A stretch of DNA of 64,000 nucleotides from an uncultured virus (IMG/VR IMGVR_UViG_2061766007_000872) (Duplodnaviria; Heunggongvirae; Uroviricota; Caudoviricetes), in IMG/VR virus record IMGVR_UViG_2061766007_000872. One strand, written 5' to 3'. Under the pieces are notes generated by a model that saw nothing but the letters and a program-made list of their open reading frames with translations, ran no database searches and was not told the DNA's origin. Positions 3 through 25,120 of the stretch are shown in pieces. The translations under genes were made by a program, and so were the position numbers. Each line of letters starts with the position of its first letter. Position 1 is the stretch's first letter.

Positions 3-299
3 GTTAGAAATATCAATGCATCAAATGTTAGTGATGCAGAAAAAGAATTCCTTAGATATGCTGCAGCAAGACATATTGTATTTACATATTCAAAGATTGC
101 AGATTACTATGCTCATGCAACTCCAGAGATGCAAAAACTCATGGAACAAAGTGCATTAGTTATCATTGATATGGATGATGCTATTGCCAATGGCTATGTC
201 AAGTTATCTAAGAATATTGAAAAGATTATGAAAGATACTGGTAGACCAGTCAAAGAAGAGTTTTATAATCAAACAACCGGTAAAAAAGGTGAACAATAA
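3..299 (+). CDS. 5'-truncated conserved phage protein of the kind found next to GREB1/TAGT-like glycosyltransferases
   Basis: Open frame 3 from the window edge (…KEFLRYAAARHIVFTYSKIADYYAHATPEMQKLMEQSALVIIDMDDAIANGYVKL…); TAA at 297-299 overlaps the next ATG. Not in the ORF track. Confidence 0.7.
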   Translation, partial: VRNINASNVSDAEKEFLRYAAARHIVFTYSKIADYYAHATPEMQKLMEQSALVIIDMDDAIANGYVKLSKNIEKIMKDTGRPVKEEFYNQTTGKKGEQ

Positions 300-1153
300 T
301 GGTAAGAGATAGTTTTGCTATATTTATCTTAACACATGGTAGACCAGATAAAGTCTTAACTTTAACTCTTCTTGAAAAGTGTAATTATACAGGTAAATGG
401 TATCTTGTTATTGATAATGAAGACAAGACAGCAGATAGATACTATGAACTTTATGGTAAAGAACATGTTGTCATGTTTGATAAGTTAAAGAAAGCACAAG
501 AATTTGATACCTGTGATATTTTATCAAGAGATAGAAGAGCAATTGTTTATGCGAGAAACGCAGCATTTGATATTGCAGAAAATCTCGGCTTAACTTATTT
601 CTTAGAACTTGATGATGACTACACAGAATTTAGAATGAGATATGACCTCAATGGTGTCTTCTCATCTTTATATGTCACACAATTAGACCCACTTATTGAA
701 GAAACACTTGACTTCTTAGATACAAGTGGTGCACTTACAGTAGCATGGGCTCAAACTGGTGACTTCATTGGTGGCATGGGCTCAAGAGTTTATAAAGAGA
801 GATTGACAAGAAAAGCCATGAACTCATTCTTCTGCAGAGTTGATAGAAGATTTGACTTTGTTGGTAGAATTAATGAAGATGTTAATACATATACTTGGAG
901 AGGTACAAGAGGTGAATTGTTTTTTACAATTGCAGATATGTCGTTGAATCAACAAGACTCACAACAAAATAGTGGTGGTATGACAGAGTTGTATTTAAAT
1001 GCAGGTACATATGTCAAGTCATTCTATTCAGTTATTGTTGCTCCTTCTTGTGTTAAGATTGCAGAAATGGGTTGTGGCCATAGAAGAATTCACCACTTAG
1101 TTGATTGGGAAACATGTACTCCAAAGATTATAAGTAGTAGATTTAAAAAATAA
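299..1153 (+). CDS. GREB1-like / TET-associated glycosyltransferase (TAGT), GT-A fold, copy 1
   Basis: IFILTHGRPD start, RN motif, LDDD (DxD), GRINEDVNTY, QQNSGGMT, HRRIHH. Confidence 0.75.
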   Translation: MVRDSFAIFILTHGRPDKVLTLTLLEKCNYTGKWYLVIDNEDKTADRYYELYGKEHVVMFDKLKKAQEFDTCDILSRDRRAIVYARNAAFDIAENLGLTYFLELDDDYTEFRMRYDLNGVFSSLYVTQLDPLIEETLDFLDTSGALTVAWAQTGDFIGGMGSRVYKERLTRKAMNSFFCRVDRRFDFVGRINEDVNTYTWRGTRGELFFTIADMSLNQQDSQQNSGGMTELYLNAGTYVKSFYSVIVAPSCVKIAEMGCGHRRIHHLVDWETCTPKIISSRFKK

Positions 1154-1154
1154 T

Positions 1155-2006
1155 ATGAGAAATGATTTTGCAGTATTCATTCTTTCTCATGGTAGACCAG
1201 ATAAGGTTGTTACATTAAAAACACTTAAAAGAATTGGCTATACTGGAAAGTATTATATTGTACTTGATGATGAAGATAAAACTTTACAAGAGTATAAAAA
1301 TACTTTTGGTGAAGACCATATTCTTTTATTTAATAAAGACAAAGTTGAACAATCATTTGATACCATGGATAATCTAAGCAACAAGAAAGTTGTTGTATAT
1401 GCCAGAAACGTTTGTTTTGATTTTGCAAGACAATTAGGTCTAAAATACTTTCTTGAATTAGATGATGATTATGTTAGATTAGAGTTAAGAACTGAAGAAT
1501 GTGGGAAATTGCTTACAACAGAACTGAGGAACGCTGATTCAATATTTGAATGTATGTTAGACTTTTTAGAAGATTCCAAAGCCCTATCAGTTGCTTTTGC
1601 ACAAGGTGGAGATTTGATTGGTGGTCTTGGAGGAACAATGTGGAAAGTTAAACTCAAAAGAAAAGCAATGAATTCCTTTTTCTGCAAGACGGATAGACCA
1701 TTCTCATTTATAGGAAGAATCAATGAGGATGTTAATACATATACAACTTTAGGTTCTAGAGGTAATTTATTCTTCACAATAGCAAATATAGATTTAATTC
1801 AAGCACCAACACAAGCACATGATGGTGGCATGAGTGATGTCTATCTTGACTCTGGAACTTATCTAAAATCATTTTATACAATTATGTCAATGCCATCATG
1901 TGTATCAATTGATATGATGGGAGAACAACATAGAAGAATACATCATAAAGTAGATTGGGAAACTTGTGTTCCTAAGATTATTAGTGGGAGATTTAAAAAT
2001 GGCTAG
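1155..2006 (+). CDS. GREB1-like / TAGT glycosyltransferase, copy 2 (tandem paralog)
   Basis: Colinear with copy 1 over its whole length; same LDDD, GRINEDVNTY and HRRIHH motifs. Confidence 0.75.
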   Translation: MRNDFAVFILSHGRPDKVVTLKTLKRIGYTGKYYIVLDDEDKTLQEYKNTFGEDHILLFNKDKVEQSFDTMDNLSNKKVVVYARNVCFDFARQLGLKYFLELDDDYVRLELRTEECGKLLTTELRNADSIFECMLDFLEDSKALSVAFAQGGDLIGGLGGTMWKVKLKRKAMNSFFCKTDRPFSFIGRINEDVNTYTTLGSRGNLFFTIANIDLIQAPTQAHDGGMSDVYLDSGTYLKSFYTIMSMPSCVSIDMMGEQHRRIHHKVDWETCVPKIISGRFKNG

Positions 2007-6795: not shown

Positions 6796-6872
6796 GGACC
6801 ATTAACTCAATTGGTTAGAGTGGACGGCCCATAACCGTTAAGTTCCGGGTTCAAGTCCTGGATGGTCCACCA
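6796..6872 (+). tRNA. tRNA with CAT anticodon, most likely tRNA-Ile2 (lysidine type), encoded CCA
   Basis: Acceptor GGACCAT/ATGGTCC, D stem ACTC/GAGT, anticodon stem GACGG/CCGTT with loop CCCATAA, T arm CCGGG-TTCAAGT-CCTGG, ACCA end. The GGACC acceptor and GACGG stem resemble Firmicute Ile2 as recalled. Confidence 0.9.
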
Positions 6873-12613: not shown

Positions 12614-13326
12614 ATGAGAGAATTTCAATTTAACAGGGAAGCCATTTTAAAGAGATTTAAAGATTGTGCAATTGCATATTGGAAAGAATATGGTATAAGA
12701 GATGATGAAGACACAGTTAGAGTAAAAGATGGTGATAGATATACATACATTGCAGAATATGATTATGCATTACTTAAGTATCTAGAAGATTATCTCAAAA
12801 AAGCAGAAAAGGTGGTGAAGTAACGTGAATTTAGGGCCAGTTAAATGTCCGAGTTGTGGTGAGAGACAAAATCTTGTTTATAGTCCTTTGATGAAAGCAA
12901 GTTGTCCTCCAGTTGTCATGTTTACTTGTGCAGTTTGTTTTGCAGAGTTTAGTCAAAGAACAAATGAGTTAAGTGATTATGACATGGAGATTGAAAGTTT
13001 GTTACAAGTTAAGAATGCAACAAAGAATCAATTAAAGATTTACATTCGTAATCATCCAAATACTTACTCAAGAATAGCACTTTTAAGACCCGATATAGAG
13101 GAATTATAGTATGAAGAAGATAATATTAAAATTAACTAAGTTACAACAAAAAGCATTACTTGAACACTTAAGTGAAAATATATGTAGAGTTGAATGCTTT
13201 ATGTGGAGAGAAACTGGACATTTTCCTAAATATGCATATGACTGTCACAATTGTCCTATGAGGGAAGCAGTTGGTAAGATAGAGCAACAATTATATGAAC
13301 AAGTTGAAGAGGGGGTAATAAAATGA
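12614..13326 (+). CDS. three small hypothetical ORFs (12614-12823, 12825-13109 with CxxC…CxxC zinc ribbon, 13111-13326)
   Basis: Tiled ORFs with SD sequences. Confidence 0.55.
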
Positions 13327-13790
13327 GAAACTTAGTTTGTGGAATTTTATTTTGGTTAGTTAGTTTAACATGGGGTCTAATATCTACATTATTGGGCTTC
13401 ATTGTTTTTTGTGTTGTTATATTATTTGCAAAAGGTAAAGTGCATAGAAATGGCTATACTGTAATTGTAGAATTTGGAGGCAATTGGGGTGGTTTAAGTC
13501 TCGGTGCTTTCAACTTTTGTGGAAGATATTCTCAAGAAGATAGTCAGTGTTATGACATTGATTGGTATGAACATACTAGAAGACATGAATTTGGACATTC
13601 ATTACAAAATCTTATTTGGGGTCCACTAATGGCTTTTGTGATTGGTATTCCTAGCATGATTAGATATTTGTATTTTAATATTAGACTTAAAAAAGGACTA
13701 GACATTAAGTCCTATGATAGCATTTGGTTTGAAGGACAAGCCACATGTTGGGGCTCANNNNNNNNNNNNNNNNNNNNNNTAATAAATTGT
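13323..13790 (+). CDS. membrane protein with HExxH motif (3' end in N gap)
   Basis: Hydrophobic N-terminus, RRHEFGHSLQ; the ORF track fuses it to sbcD across the gap. Confidence 0.6.
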
Positions 13791-14834
13791 ATGAAAGTAT
13801 TAATTGTAGGTGACACACATGTGTCAAGATATTCTTCTATTATAAGAAGTAGAGGTGAAGATTTCTCATTTAGACTTCAACAACTCATCAAGTCACTTAA
13901 TTGGGCAGAAGAAGTAGGTGCTCAACACGGATGTTCTAGAGAAATATTTTTAGGTGATTTCTTTGATAAACCAGATTTGAATTCTGAAGAGATAACTGCA
14001 CTTAGTAAAGTTAAGTGGAATGATAATGTTGTTAGATATTTTATTGTTGGTAATCATGAAAGTGGTGAAGCATCCTTAAGATATAGTTCAACATATGCTC
14101 TTTATCATGAAGGCATGATTGTAGATAAACCATTTATGTGTAATTTTGGACAAACAAATGCAAGATGTTTGCTTATTCCATATATTGGTGAAGATTCAAG
14201 AAAACCTTTAATTGATTATATTAATGATGTAGATGATTGTGGAGATGGACCTCTATACATTTTCTCACATAATGATGTTAAAGGTTTTCAACTCGGCAGA
14301 TTCGCATTGACTACAGGTTTTACAAAAGAAGAAATTCTAGCAAATAGTAAACTCTATTTTAATGGACATCTACACAATTGTGGCTGGATTGAGAAAGATA
14401 GAATCTTAAATGTGGGCGTTCTTTGTGGTCAAAACTTCAATGAAGATGCCACTAAGTATGAACACCACATTGCAATTTTAGATACAGAAACGGGTGCTGT
14501 AGAGTTCTTTGAGAATCCATATGCATTTAATTTCTATAAGATTGAAGTCAATGATGAAAAAGATTTTGCTCAATTAGATAATCTTAAAGATAATGCAGTT
14601 GTTACTATTAAATGTTTAGAGGCTCTTGAAGACAAAGTTAAAGAGAGGTTAGAATCTAATACTAAGATTTGTGAGTATAGATTACTCATTTATAGAAATG
14701 GCGTTGAAGTTGAGGTTGAGAGTACAACAGTACTTAGTGATGTCAATCACTTAGAACAATTCTCATCATTTATCCTAGAGAATATGGGTGATTCAGAAAT
14801 CATTAGAGAAGAATTAAGTGAGGTGTGTAAATAA
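13791..14834 (+). CDS. sbcD: SbcD/Mre11 (gp47-like) nuclease subunit
   Basis: VLIVGDTH, LGDFFD, VGNHE, NGHLH; upstream of an SMC-type ATPase. Confidence 0.85.
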   Translation: MKVLIVGDTHVSRYSSIIRSRGEDFSFRLQQLIKSLNWAEEVGAQHGCSREIFLGDFFDKPDLNSEEITALSKVKWNDNVVRYFIVGNHESGEASLRYSSTYALYHEGMIVDKPFMCNFGQTNARCLLIPYIGEDSRKPLIDYINDVDDCGDGPLYIFSHNDVKGFQLGRFALTTGFTKEEILANSKLYFNGHLHNCGWIEKDRILNVGVLCGQNFNEDATKYEHHIAILDTETGAVEFFENPYAFNFYKIEVNDEKDFAQLDNLKDNAVVTIKCLEALEDKVKERLESNTKICEYRLLIYRNGVEVEVESTTVLSDVNHLEQFSSFILENMGDSEIIREELSEVCK

Positions 14835-16696
14835 TGACAATTAAATTTAAGAGTATACATATTCATCATTTCTTATCCTTTAATGATGCTTATATTGATT
14901 TAACAGATAGAGGTTATTGTTTAATTTCTGGTATTAACAAGAGACCAGAAGATGCTGCGAAGAGCAATGGTGCAGGTAAATCTACAATCTCAAATGCTAT
15001 TGCTTATGCACTTTTAGGTGAAACAATTAGCCAAATCAAAGATGTTGTGAATGACCACTTTAAAGATGGTTGCTATGTTGAACTAACTTTCAGTATTGAT
15101 AATAATGAATATGTCTTAACTAGAAGTAAGGGAGACAAAGACTTAGGTACAAATCTTAAAATCACAATCAATGGTGAAGATAAGAGTGGTAAAGGTATTA
15201 GAGAATCTCAAGCAATCTTGAATGATTTATTACCAGATATTAATAGGGAACTTGTCGGTAGTGTTATTTTATTAGGACAAGGTTTACCTGATAAGTTTAC
15301 ATCAAATACTCCTAGTGGAAGAAAAGAATGTTTAGAGAATTTAACTAAATCAAACTTCATGATTCTTGATTTAAAAGATAAGATTGATAATAGACAATCT
15401 ACTTTAAACTCACAACTCAGAGAAGTTGAAGATAAGTTAATTACAATAGATACACAGAAACGAGTCTATTCAGAGCAATTAAGCGACGAAAAGCAAAAAC
15501 TTGAAGAATTACTCAAAGAAACAAATTTGAATGAGATATTAGCAGAAAAGACAAAGATGAGAGATGAGTTGCAAGCACAGTATGATTCTAATGCCAAGCA
15601 ACTAGATACAATTGCACAAGAAAAAGAAAATCTTAATGGAAAGATTCTTGCTGAATCTAATCTTAAGAATGAGAGATTACAAAGTCTTTCTACTCAATAC
15701 AATGAATATAATGGTTCCTTATCTTCAGATAGAACAAAATTTGAAATGCAAATCAATCAGTTAGAAAGAGAAATCACTGACATGAAGAACATTAAAGATG
15801 TTTGTCCTACTTGTGGTAGACCATTTGAAGGTGTTGTCAAGCCAGATACATCTGCAAAAGAAGCAGAGTTATTACAAGTAAAAGAATCATTAAATCAAGT
15901 AAGAGAAGAGATTAGATTAAATGATGAAGACTATGCTTCTGCTAAAGATAAAGTAAATACAATGTATCAAGAAGCAACACAACAAGTTAATGCAAGACTC
16001 GGTGAATTAAGAGCAGATGAGATGAAGTATTCAAATGTTGAAGTTGCTCCACTACTTGAAATGGCAAAGAGGTTAGTAATTAAAGTTGAAGGTGACATTG
16101 CATCACATGATGAAAAAGTTACAACTACTCAAAGTAAAATAGATGATTATACTACTAAGTTAAGTACTCTTAACACACAAGAAGAAGAGAGTAGAGAATC
16201 TAAACTTAATTTAAGTAAGCACATTGAAGTTGTTAATAAGTTTAATACTTATGTTAAGAGAGACTTTAGAGGTATCTTATTAGGAAATAGTATTGACTAC
16301 ATCAATGCTAAAGCAAAAGAATATGCTTTAAAGATTTTCAATACAGATGATGTTGCATTTAAATTAGATGGAAATGATATTGACATCCTCTTCTGTGGTA
16401 GAGATTATAATAACTTGAGTGGTGGTGAAAAGCAAAGAGTTGACTTAATTACACAATTTGCTATTAGAGACTTACTAGCAAAGAGATTTAAGTTCTCAAG
16501 TAATATTATCTTCTTAGATGAAATTACAGACAACTTAGATGCTGATAGTTGTGCTAGAGTTATGAACTTCATTACACAAGAGTTAAAAGATATTGAAAGT
16601 ACATTTATTATTTCGCATCATACAGACTTAGAGATTCCTGTTGATAGCGAGATTGTAATTGTGAAGAGCAGAGAAGGCATAAGTGAGGTGATGTAA
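14834..16696 (+). CDS. sbcC: SbcC/Rad50 (gp46-like) ATPase
   Basis: SNGAGKST, coiled coil with CPTC zinc hook, LSGGE, FLDE, ISH. Confidence 0.9.
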   Translation: MTIKFKSIHIHHFLSFNDAYIDLTDRGYCLISGINKRPEDAAKSNGAGKSTISNAIAYALLGETISQIKDVVNDHFKDGCYVELTFSIDNNEYVLTRSKGDKDLGTNLKITINGEDKSGKGIRESQAILNDLLPDINRELVGSVILLGQGLPDKFTSNTPSGRKECLENLTKSNFMILDLKDKIDNRQSTLNSQLREVEDKLITIDTQKRVYSEQLSDEKQKLEELLKETNLNEILAEKTKMRDELQAQYDSNAKQLDTIAQEKENLNGKILAESNLKNERLQSLSTQYNEYNGSLSSDRTKFEMQINQLEREITDMKNIKDVCPTCGRPFEGVVKPDTSAKEAELLQVKESLNQVREEIRLNDEDYASAKDKVNTMYQEATQQVNARLGELRADEMKYSNVEVAPLLEMAKRLVIKVEGDIASHDEKVTTTQSKIDDYTTKLSTLNTQEEESRESKLNLSKHIEVVNKFNTYVKRDFRGILLGNSIDYINAKAKEYALKIFNTDDVAFKLDGNDIDILFCGRDYNNLSGGEKQRVDLITQFAIRDLLAKRFKFSSNIIFLDEITDNLDADSCARVMNFITQELKDIESTFIISHHTDLEIPVDSEIVIVKSREGISEVM

Positions 16697-17538
16697 TGTT
16701 ATTTTCAAAAGAAGAGAACAAGAAGTACACTGACATGGCTAAAGATTTTGATAAGGAATTCTATACGCCAAATAGAGATGACAATAAGTTATTCAAATAT
16801 ATGTATTTAATCTTCTACATGTTAGCATGTAAGGGTAATTTCTTTAAGAAATTTGAAGACTTTGATGGTTATGCTCAATACGCAGCAACAAAGATTTACA
16901 TTAGATATCTTAAGAAAGAGAAAAAAGGTGTAAAACTCAAATCAGTATTGAATTATTGTAAGTCATGTAAGAAGCATTTAAAGGTTGACTATCAAAATGA
17001 GACCTTTGAACAAGTCACCAAGAAAGATGATAGTGATGTTATGACATACAGACATGTTTATAGAGACAATCTAGGAACAAGTTATAGCAGAATGGATATG
17101 CTTGAAGACATGAATGAGATACTAAATGCATTTCCAGTAATTGCTAAGCAAGTCATTGATGAATCTCCATACAGAAGTGATAAGATTCTAAGCAAACATA
17201 TTTATCAATCTTGCTTACTAACATTCTTATCAAGTATTACATTAACAAATAATGCAATAGATAAATTGACATCTAAGCAAGAATCAAAAGTCATCTCAGA
17301 TAACTATATTATTAAACAATATCAAAAGAATTTAGAAGAATCATTGATTTTATGGAATCTATCACAAGACTTCTCAGATATTGTAATTCTTCTTGTCAAT
17401 AAGATTAGAAGTAAAATGAGTGAAGAAATCAATGGAGTTATAGCAGCAAATAATATTCCAGATGATGTTATTGATGCCATTGTTGCCAGTGCTTATGATG
17501 AAAAAGCATATACAAATTATGATGAATCTCATGGATAG
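16696..17538 (+). CDS. hypothetical protein, possibly a divergent phage sigma factor
   Basis: EDFDGYAQYAATKIY…KSVLNYCKSCKKHLKVDY loosely resembles sigma region 2; function speculative. Confidence 0.3.
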   Translation: MLFSKEENKKYTDMAKDFDKEFYTPNRDDNKLFKYMYLIFYMLACKGNFFKKFEDFDGYAQYAATKIYIRYLKKEKKGVKLKSVLNYCKSCKKHLKVDYQNETFEQVTKKDDSDVMTYRHVYRDNLGTSYSRMDMLEDMNEILNAFPVIAKQVIDESPYRSDKILSKHIYQSCLLTFLSSITLTNNAIDKLTSKQESKVISDNYIIKQYQKNLEESLILWNLSQDFSDIVILLVNKIRSKMSEEINGVIAANNIPDDVIDAIVASAYDEKAYTNYDESHG

Positions 17539-17541
17539 GTT

Positions 17542-17928
17542 ATGAAGAAAAGTTATTTAATTAAAACATTAGAGGAAATGGATGTCAAAGATGTCTATTC
17601 TCTTCTGTTGTTTGTACTTTATAAATTAAAAGATGACAAGAAGTTTTCAACTCTAAGTGAACTTGTCTACATCTTAGATAAAGATAGTTTATTTAATTTG
17701 TTAAGTGTATATGGTGGTTTGACAATCACAATACCAACAACTAAAGAATTGAAGTTGATAGTTAGTGGCTTATTGATTTATCAACTTGTCAATTTAGAGG
17801 GAAGAGATTTGATGACATCTATTAAAGAGGTCAATAAGGGTGAATATACTGAAGCAGAGTTGAAAGAAGTTTATCTTAAGATATGTGAGGTTGTTCGGAA
17901 TTATGAGTTCAAGAGAAAGCAAGTTTAA
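17542..17928 (+). CDS. possible Mor/C-like transcription activator
   Basis: LLSVYGGLTITIPT resembles the Mor-family FGGxxxYIP motif. Confidence 0.4.
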   Translation: MKKSYLIKTLEEMDVKDVYSLLLFVLYKLKDDKKFSTLSELVYILDKDSLFNLLSVYGGLTITIPTTKELKLIVSGLLIYQLVNLEGRDLMTSIKEVNKGEYTEAELKEVYLKICEVVRNYEFKRKQV

Positions 17929-18457
17929 AACAATATTGTATAATATTATTGATGACTTGAATTGTATTCAGAGTTCTGATGATGTTCTGCTCAAGTGCAT
18001 ACAAAGTAGACTTGATGCATCATATGAGCAATATCAATGGACAATCAAAAATATTTATAACTATGTTCTAACTAGAAGTAATATCAAAGTGCTCAAAGCA
18101 CTTTCAAAAGTTAAGAAGTCCAAGGAGAAATTAAANNNNNNNNNNNNNNNNNNNNNNNNNNNNNNNNNNNNNNNNNNNNNNNNNNNNNNNNNNNNNNNNN
18201 NNNNNNNNNNNNNNGCCTATGTGATTTGTGATGCCGTTGAAGATGCACTTCTATCGGACACATATGTTTCAAATATTGAATTAGGATTTGGTACTTTGGG
18301 TATTAAATTTGAAAATAATGAGTTAAGATTCAGATTCCAGCCAAGTGCTAAATTTGAANNNNNNNNNNNNNNNNNNNNNNNNNNNNNNNNNNNNNNNNNT
18401 GAGGTTGAAAAATCTCTTGTATCTAAGATTGTTCAAACATATAAGGATTTGATGTAA
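17903..18457 (+). CDS. one or two hypothetical proteins (N gaps obscure the boundary)
   Basis: Coding-like sequence on both sides of the gaps. Confidence 0.45.
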   Translation: MSSRESKFKTILYNIIDDLNCIQSSDDVLLKCIQSRLDASYEQYQWTIKNIYNYVLTRSNIKVLKALSKVKKSKEKLXXXXXXXXXXXXXXXXXXXXXXXXXXXAYVICDAVEDALLSDTYVSNIELGFGTLGIKFENNELRFRFQPSAKFEXXXXXXXXXXXXXXEVEKSLVSKIVQTYKDLM

Positions 18458-19032
18458 TGTCTGAAACTAAAAAAGATAGGATAAACGAATATAAAAAGAA
18501 ACATAAAAGTAAAAACAATCTACCGCAAAAAGTTGAGCAACAAGAACTTACTCAATTAAATTCAGTAGATATTTTAAGTAAGATTCAAAATATAAAGAGT
18601 TCAGAAGATTTAAAAGAAGTTGCAATGTTATTTAATTTGAACATTGCAAAGAAAGAAATGTCTAGAGCACTCCAACAAGATGAACTCTTAGACATAATTC
18701 TCAACCAAGCAAGGGAAAGATTAAGTAAGAGACCGGATGAGCACTCAACAAAAGACTTGCTTGACTATTATAATGCATTTCAATCTAATCTTGATAAGTC
18801 AAGAAACTATATTGACAAGGTAGAGGAATCACCTGCAATTCAGATTAATGATAATAAGAACATTACCGTTAATGTTCAAACAATCGGATTAGGTAGAGAT
18901 GCAAATGAAGATGTCATTGATGCTGTACAAAAGGTTGTATCAGGGTTTAAAGACACACAATCACTTCAAGAGTTTGTAGATGCACTTGAAGAGACTAAAG
19001 TTATTAAGGAGACAAATGAAGATGATGACTAA
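18457..19032 (+). CDS. hypothetical helical protein
   Basis: 191-aa ORF, TAATG overlap. Confidence 0.6.
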   Translation: MSETKKDRINEYKKKHKSKNNLPQKVEQQELTQLNSVDILSKIQNIKSSEDLKEVAMLFNLNIAKKEMSRALQQDELLDIILNQARERLSKRPDEHSTKDLLDYYNAFQSNLDKSRNYIDKVEESPAIQINDNKNITVNVQTIGLGRDANEDVIDAVQKVVSGFKDTQSLQEFVDALEETKVIKETNEDDD

Positions 19033-20218
19033 AGAAGCCTTTAAAGAGTTAGTTAGAAAGTATTCAGATGGAACAGTTGCACTTCCAGATGACAAAGTTG
19101 TTGAGTTAGGAATTGCACATAGAGATTTGCCAAAAGCGGATAGAAACTGGTCTGAATTTGCTAGTATGATTGGCTGGAAAAGTGGTGGTGAATCATTAAG
19201 AAATTTTGTACTTAGAAAATTAAAAGATAAAGGTATGATTTCACATCCTGTTGATTTAAACAATGAAGATTCACTTGTTAAGAAGAGAGCAGAACTTTAT
19301 AAAGAAAGACAACAAGTAAGAGATGAGTGGTCTACTTACAATAGAATGATGAGAGAAGATGCTCGCATTGAAACTTTCAAAGAAGCAATTAGAGATGCAG
19401 CAAAGAATCTTACTCCATTTAAGAAAGTTAGTTACAAATATAAAGGTGATGAATGCACAGAAGCAATTGCAATGCTAAGTGATTTACATATCGGTGTTGA
19501 GTTTGATGATTTCTGCAACAAGTATAATTATGACATTGCACAAGCAAGAGTAAGTAAGTATGTTGATGATGTCAAGAGATATTGTAAGTTGCACAAAGTC
19601 AAGAGATTAAATATTGTTAATTTAGGTGACTTGATTAGTGGCATCATTCACACAACAATTAGACTTGAACAAGAATTTGATGTTGTTCAACAAATCATGA
19701 AAGCAGGTGAACTTTTAGGTGGTGTCTTATGTGAATTACAAGATGCAGCACCAGAAGTTATTTATAGAAGTTGTACTGACAACCATTCAAGAGCAATTGC
19801 AAATAAAAATGAAGCGATTGAAAAAGAAAACTTCTTCAGACTTATTGACTGGTATGCAGAGTTGAGAACTAAAGACACAAATGTTAAGTTTGTCAATGAT
19901 GGTTTGAATCATGAAATTGGTAAGTTTAATTTGATGAATGGTAAGAAGGTTATGTTTGCTCATGGTCACAACGATAATCCAAATAGAGTCTTCCAAAGTT
20001 TCATTGGTGCTACAGAAGAGTATGTGCACTATGTCCTCTTAGGCCACTATCATTGTGAAAAGGTGAAGAACTTTCAAAATATGAGAGTCTTTATCAACGG
20101 CAGTGTTGNNNNNNNNNNNNNNNNNNNATCAAAGAGATTATATACAAAGCCAAGTCAAATGCTTCTTGTGTTTGATAAAGACAATGTTATACACTATAGC
20201 ATCAATTTAAGCATTTAA
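19016..20218 (+). CDS. calcineurin-like metallophosphoesterase / exonuclease with N-terminal extension
   Basis: LSDLHIG, LGDLISG, TDNH, AHGH, LGHYH. Confidence 0.8.
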   Translation: MKMMTKEAFKELVRKYSDGTVALPDDKVVELGIAHRDLPKADRNWSEFASMIGWKSGGESLRNFVLRKLKDKGMISHPVDLNNEDSLVKKRAELYKERQQVRDEWSTYNRMMREDARIETFKEAIRDAAKNLTPFKKVSYKYKGDECTEAIAMLSDLHIGVEFDDFCNKYNYDIAQARVSKYVDDVKRYCKLHKVKRLNIVNLGDLISGIIHTTIRLEQEFDVVQQIMKAGELLGGVLCELQDAAPEVIYRSCTDNHSRAIANKNEAIEKENFFRLIDWYAELRTKDTNVKFVNDGLNHEIGKFNLMNGKKVMFAHGHNDNPNRVFQSFIGATEEYVHYVLLGHYHCEKVKNFQNMRVFINGSVXXXXXXXSKRLYTKPSQMLLVFDKDNVIHYSINLSI

Positions 20219-20244
20219 ATTGTATAATATAGAAAGGAAGTAGT

Positions 20245-20613
20245 ATGGCAAAAAGACATGTAATTAGATATTTTTTAGAAGTAGAACATAATTATGTTGA
20301 AACAATGGAAGTTCTTAAAGAACTCCAAGAATTAGCAAATCAAGGTAAAGTTGAAGAATCTACTTATTTAAATGTAGAAAAAGATTTAGAAGTAATTAAG
20401 ACAAATTATGAAAGAATTGCTTATATCATCTTCTTACTTAATAAACCAAATAGAAGTAAGAAAGAGGCATATGAAGAGAAAATAAATAAATCTTGGTATG
20501 ATGGTCTAAAGTTTGCCTCTAAAGAAGCAATCATGGATGAATCAAGAGATGCTTTAGCACATTTTAAAGAGGTGGTCAAGGGAGTTAAGGATGGACAAAG
20601 AGAAACTAAATAA
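20245..20613 (+). CDS. hypothetical protein
   Basis: GAAAGGAAG SD downstream of AATTGTATAAT. Confidence 0.6.
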   Translation: MAKRHVIRYFLEVEHNYVETMEVLKELQELANQGKVEESTYLNVEKDLEVIKTNYERIAYIIFLLNKPNRSKKEAYEEKINKSWYDGLKFASKEAIMDESRDALAHFKEVVKGVKDGQRETK

Positions 20614-20872
20614 GTTACTTAGTGATTTAAATCTTACAAATAAAGGTAAAGAGGTAGGTGACAAATATGTCATTACAATTAATAGTAGTGATGACTTGTC
20701 CAAATTCTACACATTACTTGACAAATATGACGGTGCTGACTTAGACCCTGAAGGGCAAGTTATGTCAGACAATTCAATTGTTATGAAGTTTTTAACTGAT
20801 GATTTTGACATCACTTTAAAGGGTGACTTAGAGCAAGATATTTACAATATGGTTATTGAAGATGCGAGGTAG
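20591..20872 (+). CDS. hypothetical protein
   Basis: GGGAG SD, 93 aa. Confidence 0.6.
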   Translation: MDKEKLNKLLSDLNLTNKGKEVGDKYVITINSSDDLSKFYTLLDKYDGADLDPEGQVMSDNSIVMKFLTDDFDITLKGDLEQDIYNMVIEDAR

Positions 20873-20875
20873 TAT

Positions 20876-21607
20876 ATGGCTGATTATGTTTTAGCAATCA
20901 ATAGAGATAAAAAATTCTTAAGAGATAGAAGTGATGAAATAGTTTTGAATCCATTAGATAGACCAAGAATTGTTGGTTTAATCAATGATTTAAAAGATAC
21001 ACTTAAAGCAAATAAAGATTTAGTTGCTCTTTCCGCTCCTCAATTAGGTAAGAAAGAAAGAGTATTTGCAATTAAGTTTTCTGATGGCGACATTAGAGCA
21101 TTCATCAATCCAGCAATAATCAGAACTACTGGTATGCATCTAAGTAGAGAAAAGGCGATTGGTTTTAATGATAAAGAAGAATATCTTATTCCAAGAGCAG
21201 ATGAAGTGTTTGCAACATATCAAACACCTGACATGCTTGCTTACAAATGTGATATGAATAAATTCACTGGTGCAGTTGCTGAAGTCTTTTTACAAATGAA
21301 TGATTTACTCAATGGTATCTTATTAGAAGATGTTGGTCTTGTCATCTTGCCTGGATTTGACAAAGCATCAGAAGAAGAAAGACAAGAAATTATCTCTATG
21401 TATCTTGACTCTTTAGGTGAAAGAAAAGATGTCATTGAGAAAGTTATCAATGATAATCCAGAAGCAAAGAATATGAATAAAGCAATTGAGTTCATGACAA
21501 AGTTACAATTAGGTGAAATTGAAACAATGCCTTTAACAGAAGAAGAGATGAANNNNNNNNNNNNNNNNNNNNNAGCAAAGAGTACTTCAGATGGGCAAAA
21601 CATTTAA
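20876..21607 (+). CDS. peptide deformylase-fold protein lacking the catalytic metal ligands
   Basis: FLRDRSDEI, LINDLKDTL, VALSAPQLG, FINPAI, IPRA; EGCLS replaced by EKAIG and QHExDHLxG by LQMNDLLNG. Confidence 0.8.
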   Translation: MADYVLAINRDKKFLRDRSDEIVLNPLDRPRIVGLINDLKDTLKANKDLVALSAPQLGKKERVFAIKFSDGDIRAFINPAIIRTTGMHLSREKAIGFNDKEEYLIPRADEVFATYQTPDMLAYKCDMNKFTGAVAEVFLQMNDLLNGILLEDVGLVILPGFDKASEEERQEIISMYLDSLGERKDVIEKVINDNPEAKNMNKAIEFMTKLQLGEIETMPLTEEEMXXXXXXXXAKSTSDGQNI

Positions 21608-21989
21608 TTACAATGCTGAAATAACATATAATGATTCTATTCATATTGAGCATCAAGGGAATGTTTCTATAGAAGCAACTGATGAAGTGGGTAGAACATT
21701 CTATCTAGTTACTAGAACTGCTTTAGGTGAGACATCATGTTTAGAGTTTGGTCCTCTATATAAAGATGAGGAATTGTTACCAGAAGAAACAATGATTCAT
21801 TTTAAAAGAATTGAGTATTCAGAAAAAGAACTAAATAAGATGATTATGAAATTCTTAAGCCCTAGAACTTATGCTAAAAGGCAATTAAAGTGGAATAAAA
21901 TTGAAGTCATAGATGTAGATTTAGCATTGAGTTATGGAATTAGTCCATTTAAATATTTAAGTGAATTCAGTGCTGATTCTAACTATTAG
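21591..21989 (+). CDS. hypothetical protein
   Basis: 132-aa ORF. Confidence 0.6.
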   Translation: MGKTFNYNAEITYNDSIHIEHQGNVSIEATDEVGRTFYLVTRTALGETSCLEFGPLYKDEELLPEETMIHFKRIEYSEKELNKMIMKFLSPRTYAKRQLKWNKIEVIDVDLALSYGISPFKYLSEFSADSNY

Positions 21990-21998
21990 GAGAATAAT

Positions 21999-22238
21999 AT
22001 GGCAAAAAGAGAAAGTGTTAAAGATTTTTATGGAAGAATTATAGGAAGTATTGAAGAACTTCCAGATGGTTCAAAAGTTGCTAAAGACTTCTATGGAAAG
22101 ATTGTCGGCAGATATGATAAGTGGCAAGGTGTCACTAAAGACTTTTTCGGAAAGATTATAGGAACTGGTGATGCTACATCAAAACTGGTGTGGGATGCTT
22201 GGAGAGAAAGAGAAGATAGGATAAAGAATGGTCAATAA
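21999..22238 (+). CDS. small repeat protein (3x KDF[YF]G[RK]I[IV]G)
   Basis: AGGAG SD; three internal repeats. Confidence 0.65.
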   Translation: MAKRESVKDFYGRIIGSIEELPDGSKVAKDFYGKIVGRYDKWQGVTKDFFGKIIGTGDATSKLVWDAWREREDRIKNGQ

Positions 22239-22260
22239 ACATTGACCATTTATTTTTGTA

Positions 22261-22289
22261 TTGACTTTATTTTGTGTAAACTTTATAAT
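22261..22289 (+). promoter_or_regulatory. sigmaA-type promoter
   Basis: TTGACT-17-TATAAT. Confidence 0.8.
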
Positions 22290-22310
22290 ATAACCGAAGA
22301 GGTGAAAAGT

Positions 22311-23141
22311 ATGACACAAGAACAATTACAAGATAGAATTCAAAAAACTAATTCAAAAATTGAAAAGATTGAGAAGAGAATCAAGAAGTGGCAAAATGCT
22401 CAAACAAAAGAAGCCTTCTTAAAAGCAGATGGTTGGCTTTTAAATATGGGTAGAGATGAAGAATATCTTTGGAATGATTACATCAAGAATTGTAATAGAG
22501 AATTAGATTATGCAGTTCAAGATTTACATGATGCTCAACTTCTTCTTGATAAGTATCAAAACATGTTAGCATTAGAAGAAGCAAAAGATAATGAATTTGA
22601 AAACAATAGAATCAAAGTCATTTGGGATTTCTTACTTAACTATAAAGAACAAGTTGCTCAATTTGTTAGAGAAAATCTTTCAGTGTTAGATGAATACTAT
22701 AAAGTCAATACACAAGCATGTGATTGGCACAATAACAATAAACATAAAGTTTATCATGGTGAAATGACAAAAGAAGAATACAATAGAGTTTATAATGAAC
22801 TCTTAAGAAGAGAAGAAGAACTTAAGTCAAATATTCATCCATACACACAAGCATGTGCTAAGAAAGACTATACAAAAGAAAATAGTAAAAGATATATTGA
22901 TGAAGAGAAACTTGAAGAAATCTTATTAAAAGATTGTAAAGCAAGATACTTCCAATTAGTTGATGAAGTCACAGAGATTACAGGTGTCATTACAGATGCT
23001 CAAAATTTACACATCAGAGCATGTGAACTCAATGGCATCATTGTCGGTGAAAAAGGTAAAGCAAAAGTGCAAACTTTTAGTGCAGGTGGTTGGAACATTC
23101 AATGCTTCCATTACAGAACAAGAGTTGATAAAGTAATCTAA
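22311..23141 (+). CDS. conserved phage hypothetical protein (coiled coil plus NGIIVGEKG…AGGWNIQCFHYR C-terminus)
   Basis: GAGGTG SD, ATG at 22311 after the promoter. Confidence 0.65.
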   Translation: MTQEQLQDRIQKTNSKIEKIEKRIKKWQNAQTKEAFLKADGWLLNMGRDEEYLWNDYIKNCNRELDYAVQDLHDAQLLLDKYQNMLALEEAKDNEFENNRIKVIWDFLLNYKEQVAQFVRENLSVLDEYYKVNTQACDWHNNNKHKVYHGEMTKEEYNRVYNELLRREEELKSNIHPYTQACAKKDYTKENSKRYIDEEKLEEILLKDCKARYFQLVDEVTEITGVITDAQNLHIRACELNGIIVGEKGKAKVQTFSAGGWNIQCFHYRTRVDKVI

Positions 23142-23177
23142 TTAATTGTATAATATATAGTGAGGTATAGTATCAAT

Positions 23178-23270
23178 ATGTTAGCATTTGTAATTATGTG
23201 TACCCTTATGAGCGGTACAAGTATGTTCATCTCTTTAATCTTATTAGGTGGAGCAATTAAGTCTAAATAA
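23178..23270 (+). CDS. 30-aa hydrophobic peptide
   Basis: GAGG SD after AATTGTATAAT; MLAFVIMCTLMSGTSMFISLILLGGAIKSK; stop overlaps topA ATG. Confidence 0.45.
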   Translation: MLAFVIMCTLMSGTSMFISLILLGGAIKSK

Positions 23271-25120
23271 TGAGCGAAAGAATATTATTAATAGTTGAAT
23301 CTCCAAATAAAGTAAAAACAATTAAACAATACTTGCCATCTAACTACATTGTTATGGCAAGTTTTGGTCATATTTCACAGATTAAAGATGGAGGTTCATA
23401 TTGGAATACTGGTATTGACCCTAAAGATAATTTTAAGATTAACTTTGCAATTGATAATGACAAAGACAATAAAGATAGAGTTGCAAAACTTAAAGAGCAA
23501 GTCAAGATTGCAGACAAAGTTATCTTAGCAACAGACCCCGATAGAGAAGGTGAGGCAATCTCCTGGTCTTTGAGAAAGTTTTTAAATGTTCCTGAAAAGA
23601 AACTTGAAAGAGTTACCTTTCATGAAATTACAAAGAATGCAGTTTTAAAAGCACTTGAACATCCAAGAAAGATTGATGAGAATCTTGTTGCTTCAGCACA
23701 TACAAGAAGTGCAGAAGATAAGATTATTGGATATGTCTTTACTCCACAAGCAAGAAAAGATTGTGGTGCAAAGAGTGTTGGTAGATGTCAGAGTGCTGGT
23801 CTCATGCTTATTGTTGATAGAGATGAGGAGTTTAGAAACTTTGAATCTAAGAAGTACTATGAGTTGTGGCTCTATTTCAATAAGAGATGTGAAGAGTTTA
23901 AAGCAAAGTATATTGGTACAAAAGACACTCGTACAGACAAATTTGATGATGTCCAAGTACTTCAATCAATTGTTGATGCTTGCGAGCCTCCTTTTGTCAT
24001 TTTGAACTCTTCTACAAAAGAGAGAAAAGAATATCCAAAACCTCCATTTATTACTAGTACACTTCAACAAGAAGTATTTAATAAGTTCAAAATTAAGGTT
24101 AAAGATTGTAATGCTATTGCTCAAAGATTATTTGAAGGCATTGATGTTGGTAATAAACATGTTGCATTGATTACATATATTAGAACTGATAGTCCAGAGT
24201 TTGCTCCTGAATTTATTCCTATTCTTGAAGATTTTGTTAAGCAACATTATGGTGATGATTGGTATGCTCCAATTAGAAAGGCAAAAAAACAAGAGAATGC
24301 TCAAGATGGACACGAAGCGATTAGATGTGTTGATTTAGATATGACACCTGAAAAGTTGAGCCAATATATAAGTGATAAAACACTCCTTAAAGTATATGAT
24401 ATCATATACAGAAGAACTATTGCTACAATGATGAAGCCGTGCATTACAAATGAAACAACATACACAATAGAGTGCAATGGACATTTATTTGAATTTACTT
24501 CTAGAGAGGAGAAGTTTGATGGTTTTAAAAGAGTTTACAAATATAGTGATGCTCCTGAAAATGAAGATGAAGATAGTAAAGAATCTCGCACATCATTTAG
24601 TAGAGGTGAACAATTAAATGTCACATCATTAGATTCAGTTGAAAGGGAAACAAAACCTAGACCAAGATTTAATGAAGCAACATATGTTAAGGCACTTGAA
24701 GATTCGGGAATTGGTAGACCATCAACCTATGAAAAGACACTTGAAACTAATATAAGTCCTTCTAGAGGTTATTGTACAGTTGAGGATGGTTATCTTGTGC
24801 CTACAGAAAAAGGTATTCAAGTAGTTAAATATCTAAGAAAAACATTCCCCACAATCTTTAATATTAATTACACTCGTGAGATGGAAAAGAAACTTGATGA
24901 CATTGAGAATGGTAAAGTTGATAAGTTAACTGTCTTAAATGATTTCTATAATGAAGTTGAAAGTGAAATTAAGAAGGTTAATGCATCATCTAAAGAGAAA
25001 GAAATATCAGATGAAGTTTGTCCTCTATGCGGTGCACAAATGATAGTTAGAACAGGTCAATATGGTAAGTTCTTAGGATGTAGTAAATATCCTAAATGCA
25101 AAGGTATTAAAAAATTATAA
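23270..25120 (+). CDS. topA: DNA topoisomerase IA with a single C-terminal zinc ribbon
   Basis: IVESPNK, ATDPDREGE, SVGRCQS, ITYIRTD (catalytic Tyr), QDGHEAIR, GIGRPST, CPLC…FLGCSKYPKC. Confidence 0.95.
   Translation: MSERILLIVESPNKVKTIKQYLPSNYIVMASFGHISQIKDGGSYWNTGIDPKDNFKINFAIDNDKDNKDRVAKLKEQVKIADKVILATDPDREGEAISWSLRKFLNVPEKKLERVTFHEITKNAVLKALEHPRKIDENLVASAHTRSAEDKIIGYVFTPQARKDCGAKSVGRCQSAGLMLIVDRDEEFRNFESKKYYELWLYFNKRCEEFKAKYIGTKDTRTDKFDDVQVLQSIVDACEPPFVILNSSTKERKEYPKPPFITSTLQQEVFNKFKIKVKDCNAIAQRLFEGIDVGNKHVALITYIRTDSPEFAPEFIPILEDFVKQHYGDDWYAPIRKAKKQENAQDGHEAIRCVDLDMTPEKLSQYISDKTLLKVYDIIYRRTIATMMKPCITNETTYTIECNGHLFEFTSREEKFDGFKRVYKYSDAPENEDEDSKESRTSFSRGEQLNVTSLDSVERETKPRPRFNEATYVKALEDSGIGRPSTYEKTLETNISPSRGYCTVEDGYLVPTEKGIQVVKYLRKTFPTIFNINYTREMEKKLDDIENGKVDKLTVLNDFYNEVESEIKKVNASSKEKEISDEVCPLCGAQMIVRTGQYGKFLGCSKYPKCKGIKKL

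Follow-up and report, generated by a model that had tools for sequence, protein, structure and literature searches.

A phage-borne peptide deformylase homologue with a C-terminal tail and a predicted inactive catalytic site in an uncultured virus

Few auxiliary genes are as abundant in viral metagenomes as those of phage-encoded peptide deformylases (PDFs). The phage PDF is treated as a processing enzyme in PMC7162821. The viral PDFs described in PMC5591237, i.e. the type 1B protein of Vibrio phage Vp16 and the S-SSM7/marine type 4 proteins, keep the conserved motifs and are active in vivo; their C-termini are shortened and lack the ribosome-binding region. PDFs act at the ribosomal exit tunnel, where the helix at the C-terminus of Escherichia coli PDF binds between uL22 and bL32 (PMC12690207, PMC5591237), and the contacts of this helix are given as basic residues, K150, R153, K157, K160 and R163 (PMC12690207). 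According to the same two sources, type 3 and some accessory bacterial PDFs carry motif substitutions and are weakly active or inactive, with examples in S. aureus, S. pneumoniae and trypanosomatid mitochondria. None of the papers covered by our full-text search describes a pseudo-deformylase from a phage or a phage PDF with a comparable tail. Here, we analysed a stretch of 64,000 nucleotides from an uncultured virus of the Caudoviricetes (IMG/VR record IMGVR_UViG_2061766007_000872), the whole of which we call the window. One of its genes encodes a protein, hereafter the window protein, that appears from its sequence to be a phage-borne, tail-bearing pseudo-PDF distinct from the characterised viral PDFs.

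The features of the gene and its surroundings are given in table 1. The TAG stop codon of the upstream ORF (20870-20872) lies between the GAGG and the ATG of the PDF-like gene, leaving a gap of 3 nt between stop and start, and the last 17 nt of the PDF-like ORF overlap the next gene (132 aa). The preliminary description had called the ORF intact. It does run from ATG to TAA, with one reservation: 21 bases are masked as N (21553-21573), which turns tail residues 226-233 into eight X, and the continuity of this stretch is deduced from the protein P0001 (91% identical, 243 aa), which is unbroken there. We considered a genetic code with TGA read as Trp for the window and retained code 11: the cover by + strand ORFs rose merely from 0.80 to 0.84, and no convincing TGA-to-Trp alignment was found in the part of the window from 13 to 30 kb. 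The PDF-like ORF is identical under both codes.

The G+C content of the window is 30%, and almost every long ORF is on the + strand. It encodes two glucosyltransferase paralogues and a set of replication and recombination genes that includes a UvsX-like recombinase, clamp-loader subunits, SbcD- and SbcC-like nucleases, a metallophosphatase-type exonuclease and a topoisomerase IA. Near-identical DNA was searched for among GenBank phages, with no match for positions 13323-25120. The SbcC-like protein shares around 30% identity with its counterparts in Listeria phage LIS04, Bacillus phage SP-15 and a Streptococcus phage, which suggests a Bacillota-type host. Parts of the region are present in sequencing runs labelled as bovine gut or rumen from several studies. 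A phage tRNA-Met was considered as a link to formylation and set aside; judged by eye, it is not initiator-like.

Table 1. Position of the PDF-like gene, its parts and its small neighbours in the window.
Feature	Position	Strand	Basis or remark
GAGG ribosome-binding site	20866..20869	+	6 nt 5' of the PDF-like ATG; read from the sequence
PDF-like ORF	20876..21607	+	ATG start, TAA stop, 243 aa; Pfam PF01327, E 8.1e-16
PDF-fold core, residues 1-159	20876..21352	+	VIA-align to 1ws0, Foldseek (predicted model)
Motif I remnant LVALSAPQLG, residues 49-58	21020..21049	+	alignment with E. coli Def
Motif II remnant EKAIG, residues 92-96	21149..21163	+	Ala in place of the ligand Cys; Glu retained
Motif III remnant LQMNDLLNG, residues 139-147	21290..21316	+	His/Glu/His replaced by Gln/Met/Leu, final Gly kept
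Family-specific two-helix hairpin (166-193, 195-212), acidic	21371..21511	+	AlphaFold2 models, charge, conserved residues
Low-confidence, fast-evolving C-terminal end, residues 213-243	21512..21604	+	pLDDT 41-73, strain differences, masked 21553-21573
Upstream gene, 122 aa	20245-20613	+	syntenic homologues in 19/20 loci
Upstream gene, 93 aa	20591-20872	+	syntenic homologues in 12/20 loci
Downstream gene, 132 aa	21591-21989	+	homologues in 17/20 loci
Downstream gene, 79 aa	21999-22238	+	homologues in 16/20 loci

The PDF homology of the window protein is far beyond chance. Its PF01327 match reaches 58.4 bits against a gathering cut-off of 22.8 and covers profile positions 9-147 of 156, and the protein also matches PHROG 2890 'peptide deformylase' (1.1e-11). 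The segments from which the scaffold had been recognised, LRDRS, LINDLKDTL, ALSAPQLG, FINP and PR, are all present. Solved PDFs were matched weakly by direct sequence comparison (best 3.5e-5). With 98 family sequences as input, AlphaFold2 gave a model (pLDDT 85.6, pTM 0.76) that was used for the structural search that had been proposed as a check, and the search found a PDF fold. VIA-align superposed the predicted model on the Bacillus cereus PDF 1ws0 with a Z of 21.8 and an rmsd of 1.8 Å over 149 residues, spanning model residues 3-159 and none past 159. Foldseek returned 161 matches at E<=1e-3, and all among the matches listed were PDFs. The predicted fold is alike that of the canonical E. 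coli-type Def (type 1B; PF01327, TIGR00079; Z around 21, rmsd around 2 Å, around 148 residues) and that of the cyanophage S-SSM7 structure 3uwa (Z 20.9, rmsd 1.7 Å, 142 residues). Score and predicted fold place the window protein in the PF01327 fold family, where it consists of a type 1-like PDF core and a family-specific C-terminal hairpin. The NCBIfam equivalogs were missed, with 33.0 bits against 162 (NF006670) and 29.1 against 103.95 (TIGR00079), i.e. a shortfall of at least 70 bits.

We mapped the active-site residues by alignment with E. coli Def (NC_000913.3) and the PDF of cyanophage S-CAM7, using mature E. coli numbering. The window protein keeps Glu88, Arg102, Gly139, Gln50 and the INP and PR segments of canonical Def, but Cys90, His132, Glu133, His136, Gly43 and Gly45 are all replaced. 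The ligand Cys90 corresponds to Ala94, His132 to Gln140, the catalytic Glu133 to Met141 and His136 to Leu144; in motif I, Gly43 is replaced by Leu and Gly45 by Ala. The earlier reading of motif II as EKAIG and motif III as LQMNDL was correct, since both stand in the translation and the four catalytic residues are absent. The updated consensus of motif I is PhiGPhiAAxQ (PMC12690207), from which VALSAPQ departs by Ala for Gly and Ser for the first Ala, while the Gln is kept. A regular-expression search for HE..H had no hit anywhere in the window protein. Because the defining residues were examined and are missing, we did not file the protein as a functional deformylase (EC 3.5.1.88), and we predict it to be inactive. 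It differs in this from the characterised viral PDFs, and its C-terminus is around 85 aa longer than theirs.

The window protein belongs to a sizeable family. A word-indexed search retrieved proteins of 148-256 aa in 99 clusters (90% identity), which share 37-91% identity with the query and all match PF01327; they lie on contigs of up to 198 kb, and the ORF is intact down to 37% identity. Searching 1.84 billion representatives with a profile gave 175 clusters (50% identity) at E<=1e-30, and 21,871 at E<=1e-3, where the search reaches PDFs in general. Within the databases searched here, the tail-bearing family was found solely in uncultured phage and metagenome contigs. GenBank phages gave no match covering at least 80% of either the window protein (0/6) or a canonical relative described below (0/167). 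Several family proteins are named 'peptide deformylase' in their source databases. We aligned 250 sequences: the window protein, 233 of 247 stored proteins, 14 IMG/VR loci, E. coli Def and the S-CAM7 PDF. The 14 stored proteins shorter than 195 aa were left out, as was one locus (L005) that duplicates another (L004), and a 173-aa PDF without tail (L015) served as outgroup and does not enter the family counts.

Among the 247 family sequences of at least 195 aa, 29 have all of the catalytic Cys, His, Glu and His, 85 have some and 133 have none. A regular expression for HE..H at the motif III position agreed with this classification in 247/247 sequences, and a chance HE..H occurs near residue 84 in three. 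Sequences of the 'none' class carry mostly Gln at position 132 (84%), Met at 133 (66%) and Leu at 136 (57%), where the commonest residues are Leu, Met and Ile. The structural positions are kept in this class: E88 in 94%, R102 in 96% and G139 in 97%. Most of the 'complete' members deviate in motif I, with Gln50 replaced by Ala in 62% and Gly43 by Leu in 75%, so that these, too, are only putatively active. The two His and the Glu are absent from all homologues at least 50% identical to the window protein. Hence, the loss is old in the window lineage and is shared by its relatives, as the preliminary description had proposed to check, and we found no close homologue keeping EGCLS/HExxH that would indicate recent decay.

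These data bear on whether the protein could still be an enzyme, either a deformylase or another hydrolase that uses non-canonical residues. The fold is intact in the predicted model, 57% of the dead members have His88, and both His88 and Cys125 are invariant in the close clade. However, neither His88 nor Cys125 is conserved across the dead class, none of the three ligand positions of the window protein is His, Cys, Asp or Glu, a Met replaces the catalytic Glu, and every NCBIfam equivalog cut-off is missed by the wide margin given above. Residual catalysis is therefore a very improbable account of this gene.

At the other end of the family stands an IMG/VR protein of 239 aa (L002) in which GVGLAAPQ, EGCLS and HELDH are all canonical and the tail is also present. 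It passes TIGR00079 (105.3 against 103.95). It resembles the window protein in its tail (FDNATDEERQQIVEMYLESL...AIDFMTKV), in overall sequence (42% identity) and in having downstream homologues of the 132-aa and 79-aa genes, but the window protein has neither the canonical motifs nor the TIGR00079 pass. To place such members relative to the dead ones, we used trees of 168 rows, made of the profile-search representatives of at least 195 aa, 15 word-search proteins, the loci and three outgroups. With FastTree and the motif columns kept, complete members lie near the outgroup and root. With IQ-TREE in quick mode and without the motif columns they do not lie near the root, and deep supports range from 16 to 87. 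The deep topology of the family tree is thus unstable. On the IQ-TREE tree, members must have switched between the complete and the incomplete state at least 11 times, and between 'none' and 'some' 33 times. The window protein falls in a clade of 16 tips (support 96), comprising 13 'none', two 'Cys only' and one 'Cys plus second His', with no complete member. We infer that the ancestor was probably a working tail-bearing deformylase and that catalysis would have been lost repeatedly. We take the direction to be loss and not gain because four catalytic residues would hardly be regained and because a member such as L002 exists.

Loss of the catalytic residues might also mean that the gene is a decaying relic, i.e. 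a nascent pseudogene or a functionless artefact of annotation. We analysed selection in the window and six metagenome loci with 63-78% amino acid identity; the orthologue at a further locus (L088) was left out for its in-frame TGA, which could by itself be seen as a sign of decay. Over residues 1-224, the NG86 dN/dS had a median of 0.26 (0.18-0.34, 21 pairs), with 0.23 for the core and 0.36 for the tail, and a second run with the identical gene set gave 0.27, all these values being approximate because dS is around 0.8-0.9 and thus near saturation. On the same approximate scale, the medians were 0.22 for the exonuclease, 0.20 for the topoisomerase IA, 0.32 for orf122, 0.30 for orf93 and 0.49 for orf132. 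The PDF-like gene is under purifying selection, near the level of the exonuclease and the topoisomerase, and the check suggested at the outset came out in favour of constraint. Differences from contigs around 92% identical in other runs show where change accumulates. Among the 40 of 178 differences listed, 29 fall in the PDF-like gene: 15 synonymous and one non-synonymous in residues 1-215, five synonymous and eight non-synonymous in residues 216-243. Decay is at odds with this constraint, which is comparable to that of the phages' replication enzymes, with an ORF that is unbroken throughout the 99 clusters, even at 37% identity, and with a syntenic genome position. As to the orthologue with the in-frame TGA, the codon falls on a conserved Trp, given as W in P0027 from the database, which points to TGA read as Trp and not to a break. 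A functionless relic is thus extremely improbable.

The genomic position of the gene, in a conserved block of replication and recombination genes, is shared across catalytic states. In 20 related loci the recurrent order is SbcC-like, 280-aa, 128-aa, 190-aa, 191-aa, exonuclease, 122-aa, 93-aa and PDF-like, and this order is seen whether the PDF-like gene is complete (L006, L011), partial (L004, L009) or dead (L001, L003, L082-L087). The small neighbour genes had no family match in PHROGs, Pfam or NCBIfam, and PADLOC had no match for the window protein, for L002 or for five genes nearby. No second PF01327 copy was found within the window, and each of four related virus contigs (128-159 kb) has exactly one PF01327 match, the tail-bearing gene (4/4). 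Single copy and shared synteny imply that the dead form is the orthologue of the active-looking form and not a spare paralogue. This separates the window protein from the type 3 and accessory PDFs, which it resembles in having substituted motifs. The latter are cellular paralogues beside an active copy, whereas the window protein is phage-borne and the sole PDF homologue found; it also has a family-specific tail and has lost motif III wholly.

The extra tail covers approximately residues 160-243. The helical extension of around 80 aa that had been described at first is borne out by the AlphaFold2 model, in which helices 166-193 and 195-212 have a pLDDT of around 88-92 and confidence drops from around residue 216 onwards. 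The window protein shows the pattern of the tail-bearing family, a PDF core followed by a hairpin of the form FD.A..EE..EI..MYL.SL ... AI.FMTK...GE, and the tail extends at least 50 aa past the core in 245 of the 250 aligned rows. The hairpin is the constant feature of the family. Residues D162, Y176, L180, F206 and G213 are conserved family-wide. As most of these are hydrophobic (Y176, L180, F206), a family-wide conserved surface patch is not evident. Folded alone, the tail gives a confident hairpin (pLDDT 85.1, pTM 0.53), which had a best Z of 4.2 and none of at least 5 against 48,161 chains; a plain helical hairpin is uninformative in such a comparison. The tail of P0001 (residues 156-243) had a best score of 0.77 in the ESM Atlas, below lead level. 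A search for shorter tail-bearing proteins yielded one of 101 aa, probably a fragment, and the word-based single-sequence search found no standalone or fused tail (0/141 longer candidates scored). A Pfam HTH_DNAJC9 match to residues 163-195 was dismissed (E 0.0042; its 17.7 bits fall short of the cut-off, 27). A few members (L010, L012-L014) have a basic extension after the hairpin.

The place of the tail raises the question of ribosome binding. It starts at the topological point where the C-terminal helix of E. coli Def begins, after motif III. Together with the action of PDFs at the exit tunnel (PMC12690207, PMC5591237) and the constraint on the gene, this would fit a protein whose dead core and tail dock in the place of the host PDF and block or redirect co-translational N-terminal processing, the first of the roles put forward in the preliminary description. 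Yet E. coli Def has a short basic C-terminal helix and the window protein has an acidic hairpin of around 85 aa instead. Across the family (n=247), the net charge of the two-helix part varies from -16 to 0, its median being -8; that of the whole window tail (residues 156-243) is -9, against +6 for the E. coli segment aligned to the tail. The window tail does not form a basic helix after motif III like that of K150, R153, K157, K160 and R163. The charge speaks, if weakly, against docking in the manner of E. coli, and the model would require many independent switches from aiding to blocking deformylation. We consider such an occupant of the exit site unlikely.

Another option is that the inert cleft binds formylated N-termini, and that the protein protects or sequesters formyl-Met peptides. 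The motif I strand is conserved in dead members (L46 in 83%, A48 in 93%, Q50 in 84%), which favours this option. Weak evidence against it is that dead members vary along the motif II wall of their substrate cleft, around 18% of them having gaps there, and position 128, which we take to line the substrate pocket, is Glu in the window protein and in 49% of the dead members. The residues of the P1' pocket include I86 and L125 (PMC12690207), and these correspond in the window protein to S90 and A133 when the register is fixed on E92 as E88; the former correspondence is our own reading, as MAFFT set S90 against T84. A reader or shield of formyl-Met peptides therefore seems distinctly improbable.

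The preliminary description had proposed a repurposed pseudoenzyme that might occupy the exit site, compete with the host PDF, bind fMet-peptides or act as a decoy for a defence sensor. Fold, residue loss, the old and shared nature of this loss and the constraint all agree with a pseudoenzyme, and its repurposing for any of these putative roles is the part that goes further than these observations. We are confident that the window protein is a pseudoenzyme kept by selection. That it acts by binding and not by hydrolysis is quite likely, and the basis for this is the loss of catalysis together with the constraint that was kept. As a whole, we think it likely that the ORF encodes a non-catalytic PDF descendant, from a family in which catalysis is dispensable, and that it is kept for binding. 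As the partner, one from the host's ribosome or N-terminal processing machinery and some other host or phage protein come out nearly level, the latter very slightly ahead, and neither is more likely than not. Under this reading of a non-catalytic descendant, the ancestor would have been a working tail-bearing deformylase, and the metal site would have been lost in many lineages, including that of the window. The fold and the Glu88-Arg102 structural positions would have outlasted this loss, as would the tail, the location in the genome and the purifying selection. The protein may then have a stoichiometric binding or adaptor role in early or middle infection, with the inert core and the tail as its putative interaction surface. 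One can push the argument further and suppose that the job for which the family was selected never needed catalysis, the core serving as a handle for the host's nascent-chain processing site and the hairpin recruiting or blocking a partner there. We regard this extension as doubtful.

The tail-bearing family reverses the picture of viral PDFs as stated in PMC5591237, since in its around 175 clusters (50% identity) a domain was added and the active site was widely lost, and it is constrained like replication enzymes despite this loss. A phage gene annotated as 'peptide deformylase' cannot be taken to encode an active enzyme. The series from canonical to partial to dead versions within one syntenic gene makes the family a clean system to study roles of the PDF scaffold other than deformylation, and it may also be useful to find the partner of the tail. 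If the core is indeed a handle for the processing site, the dead versions would be enzyme-free regulators of host or phage protein maturation, and the family would provide the first case of a pseudo-deformylase with which a virus acts on the machinery of translation.

In some members of the tail-bearing PDF-like family (L010:5971-6696, L012, L013 and L014), the acidic hairpin is followed C-terminally by a Lys/Arg-rich extension of 30-45 aa, which the window protein lacks. This extension could be a contact for nucleic acid or the ribosome. Three orthologues devoid of the four catalytic residues (the database proteins P0022 and P0026, and the metagenomic L085:2078-2803; identity ~66-68%) have an HExxH-type string, HEGMH, a short way upstream of the former motif II. 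The string is not conserved across the clade, and we regard it as a chance string.

In some relatives of the window phage, TGA probably codes for Trp. The PDF-like orthologue of a metagenome locus (L088:985-1710) has an in-frame TGA precisely at the conserved Trp of 'DGWDEAS', a position where the database protein P0027 has W. When TGA is read as Trp, the ORF cover of the + strand rises from 0.59 to 0.66 in this locus and from 0.71 to 0.89 in the related locus L008; the window gains little (0.80 to 0.84), and its own code looks like code 11. The window also contains short runs of N (17885-18457, the 20100-20130 region, 21553-21573 and others), which turn up as X in ORF translations; 8 such X lie in the tail of the PDF-like protein.

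Other genes of the window (all on the + strand)
Feature	Position	Strand	Basis
Glucosyltransferase-like gene, first of a tandem pair	299-1153	+	PHROG 842, E ~1e-68
Glucosyltransferase-like gene, second of the pair	1155-2006	+	PHROG 842, E ~1e-68
tRNA-Met, anticodon CAT	6796-6872	+	phage-encoded
79-aa ORF, composed of three KDF[YF]GKI[IV]G repeats	21999-22238	+	translation
Topoisomerase IA, full-length	23270-25120	+	Toprim, Topoisom_bac 3.8e-97, C4 zinc ribbon

Downstream of the PDF-like gene, the repeat ORF had no match in PHROGs, Pfam, NCBIfam or PADLOC; it has homologues in 16 of the 20 related loci. The phage-encoded topoisomerase IA is also conserved across related loci. Judged by eye, positions 1 and 72 of the tRNA-Met form a G:C pair, and the three G:C pairs that mark the anticodon stem of an initiator tRNA are missing. 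The molecule resembles an elongator Met or Ile2-type tRNA rather than an initiator. Finally, the presence of two tandem glucosyltransferase-like paralogues suggests that the DNA of this phage is hypermodified and glucosylated.
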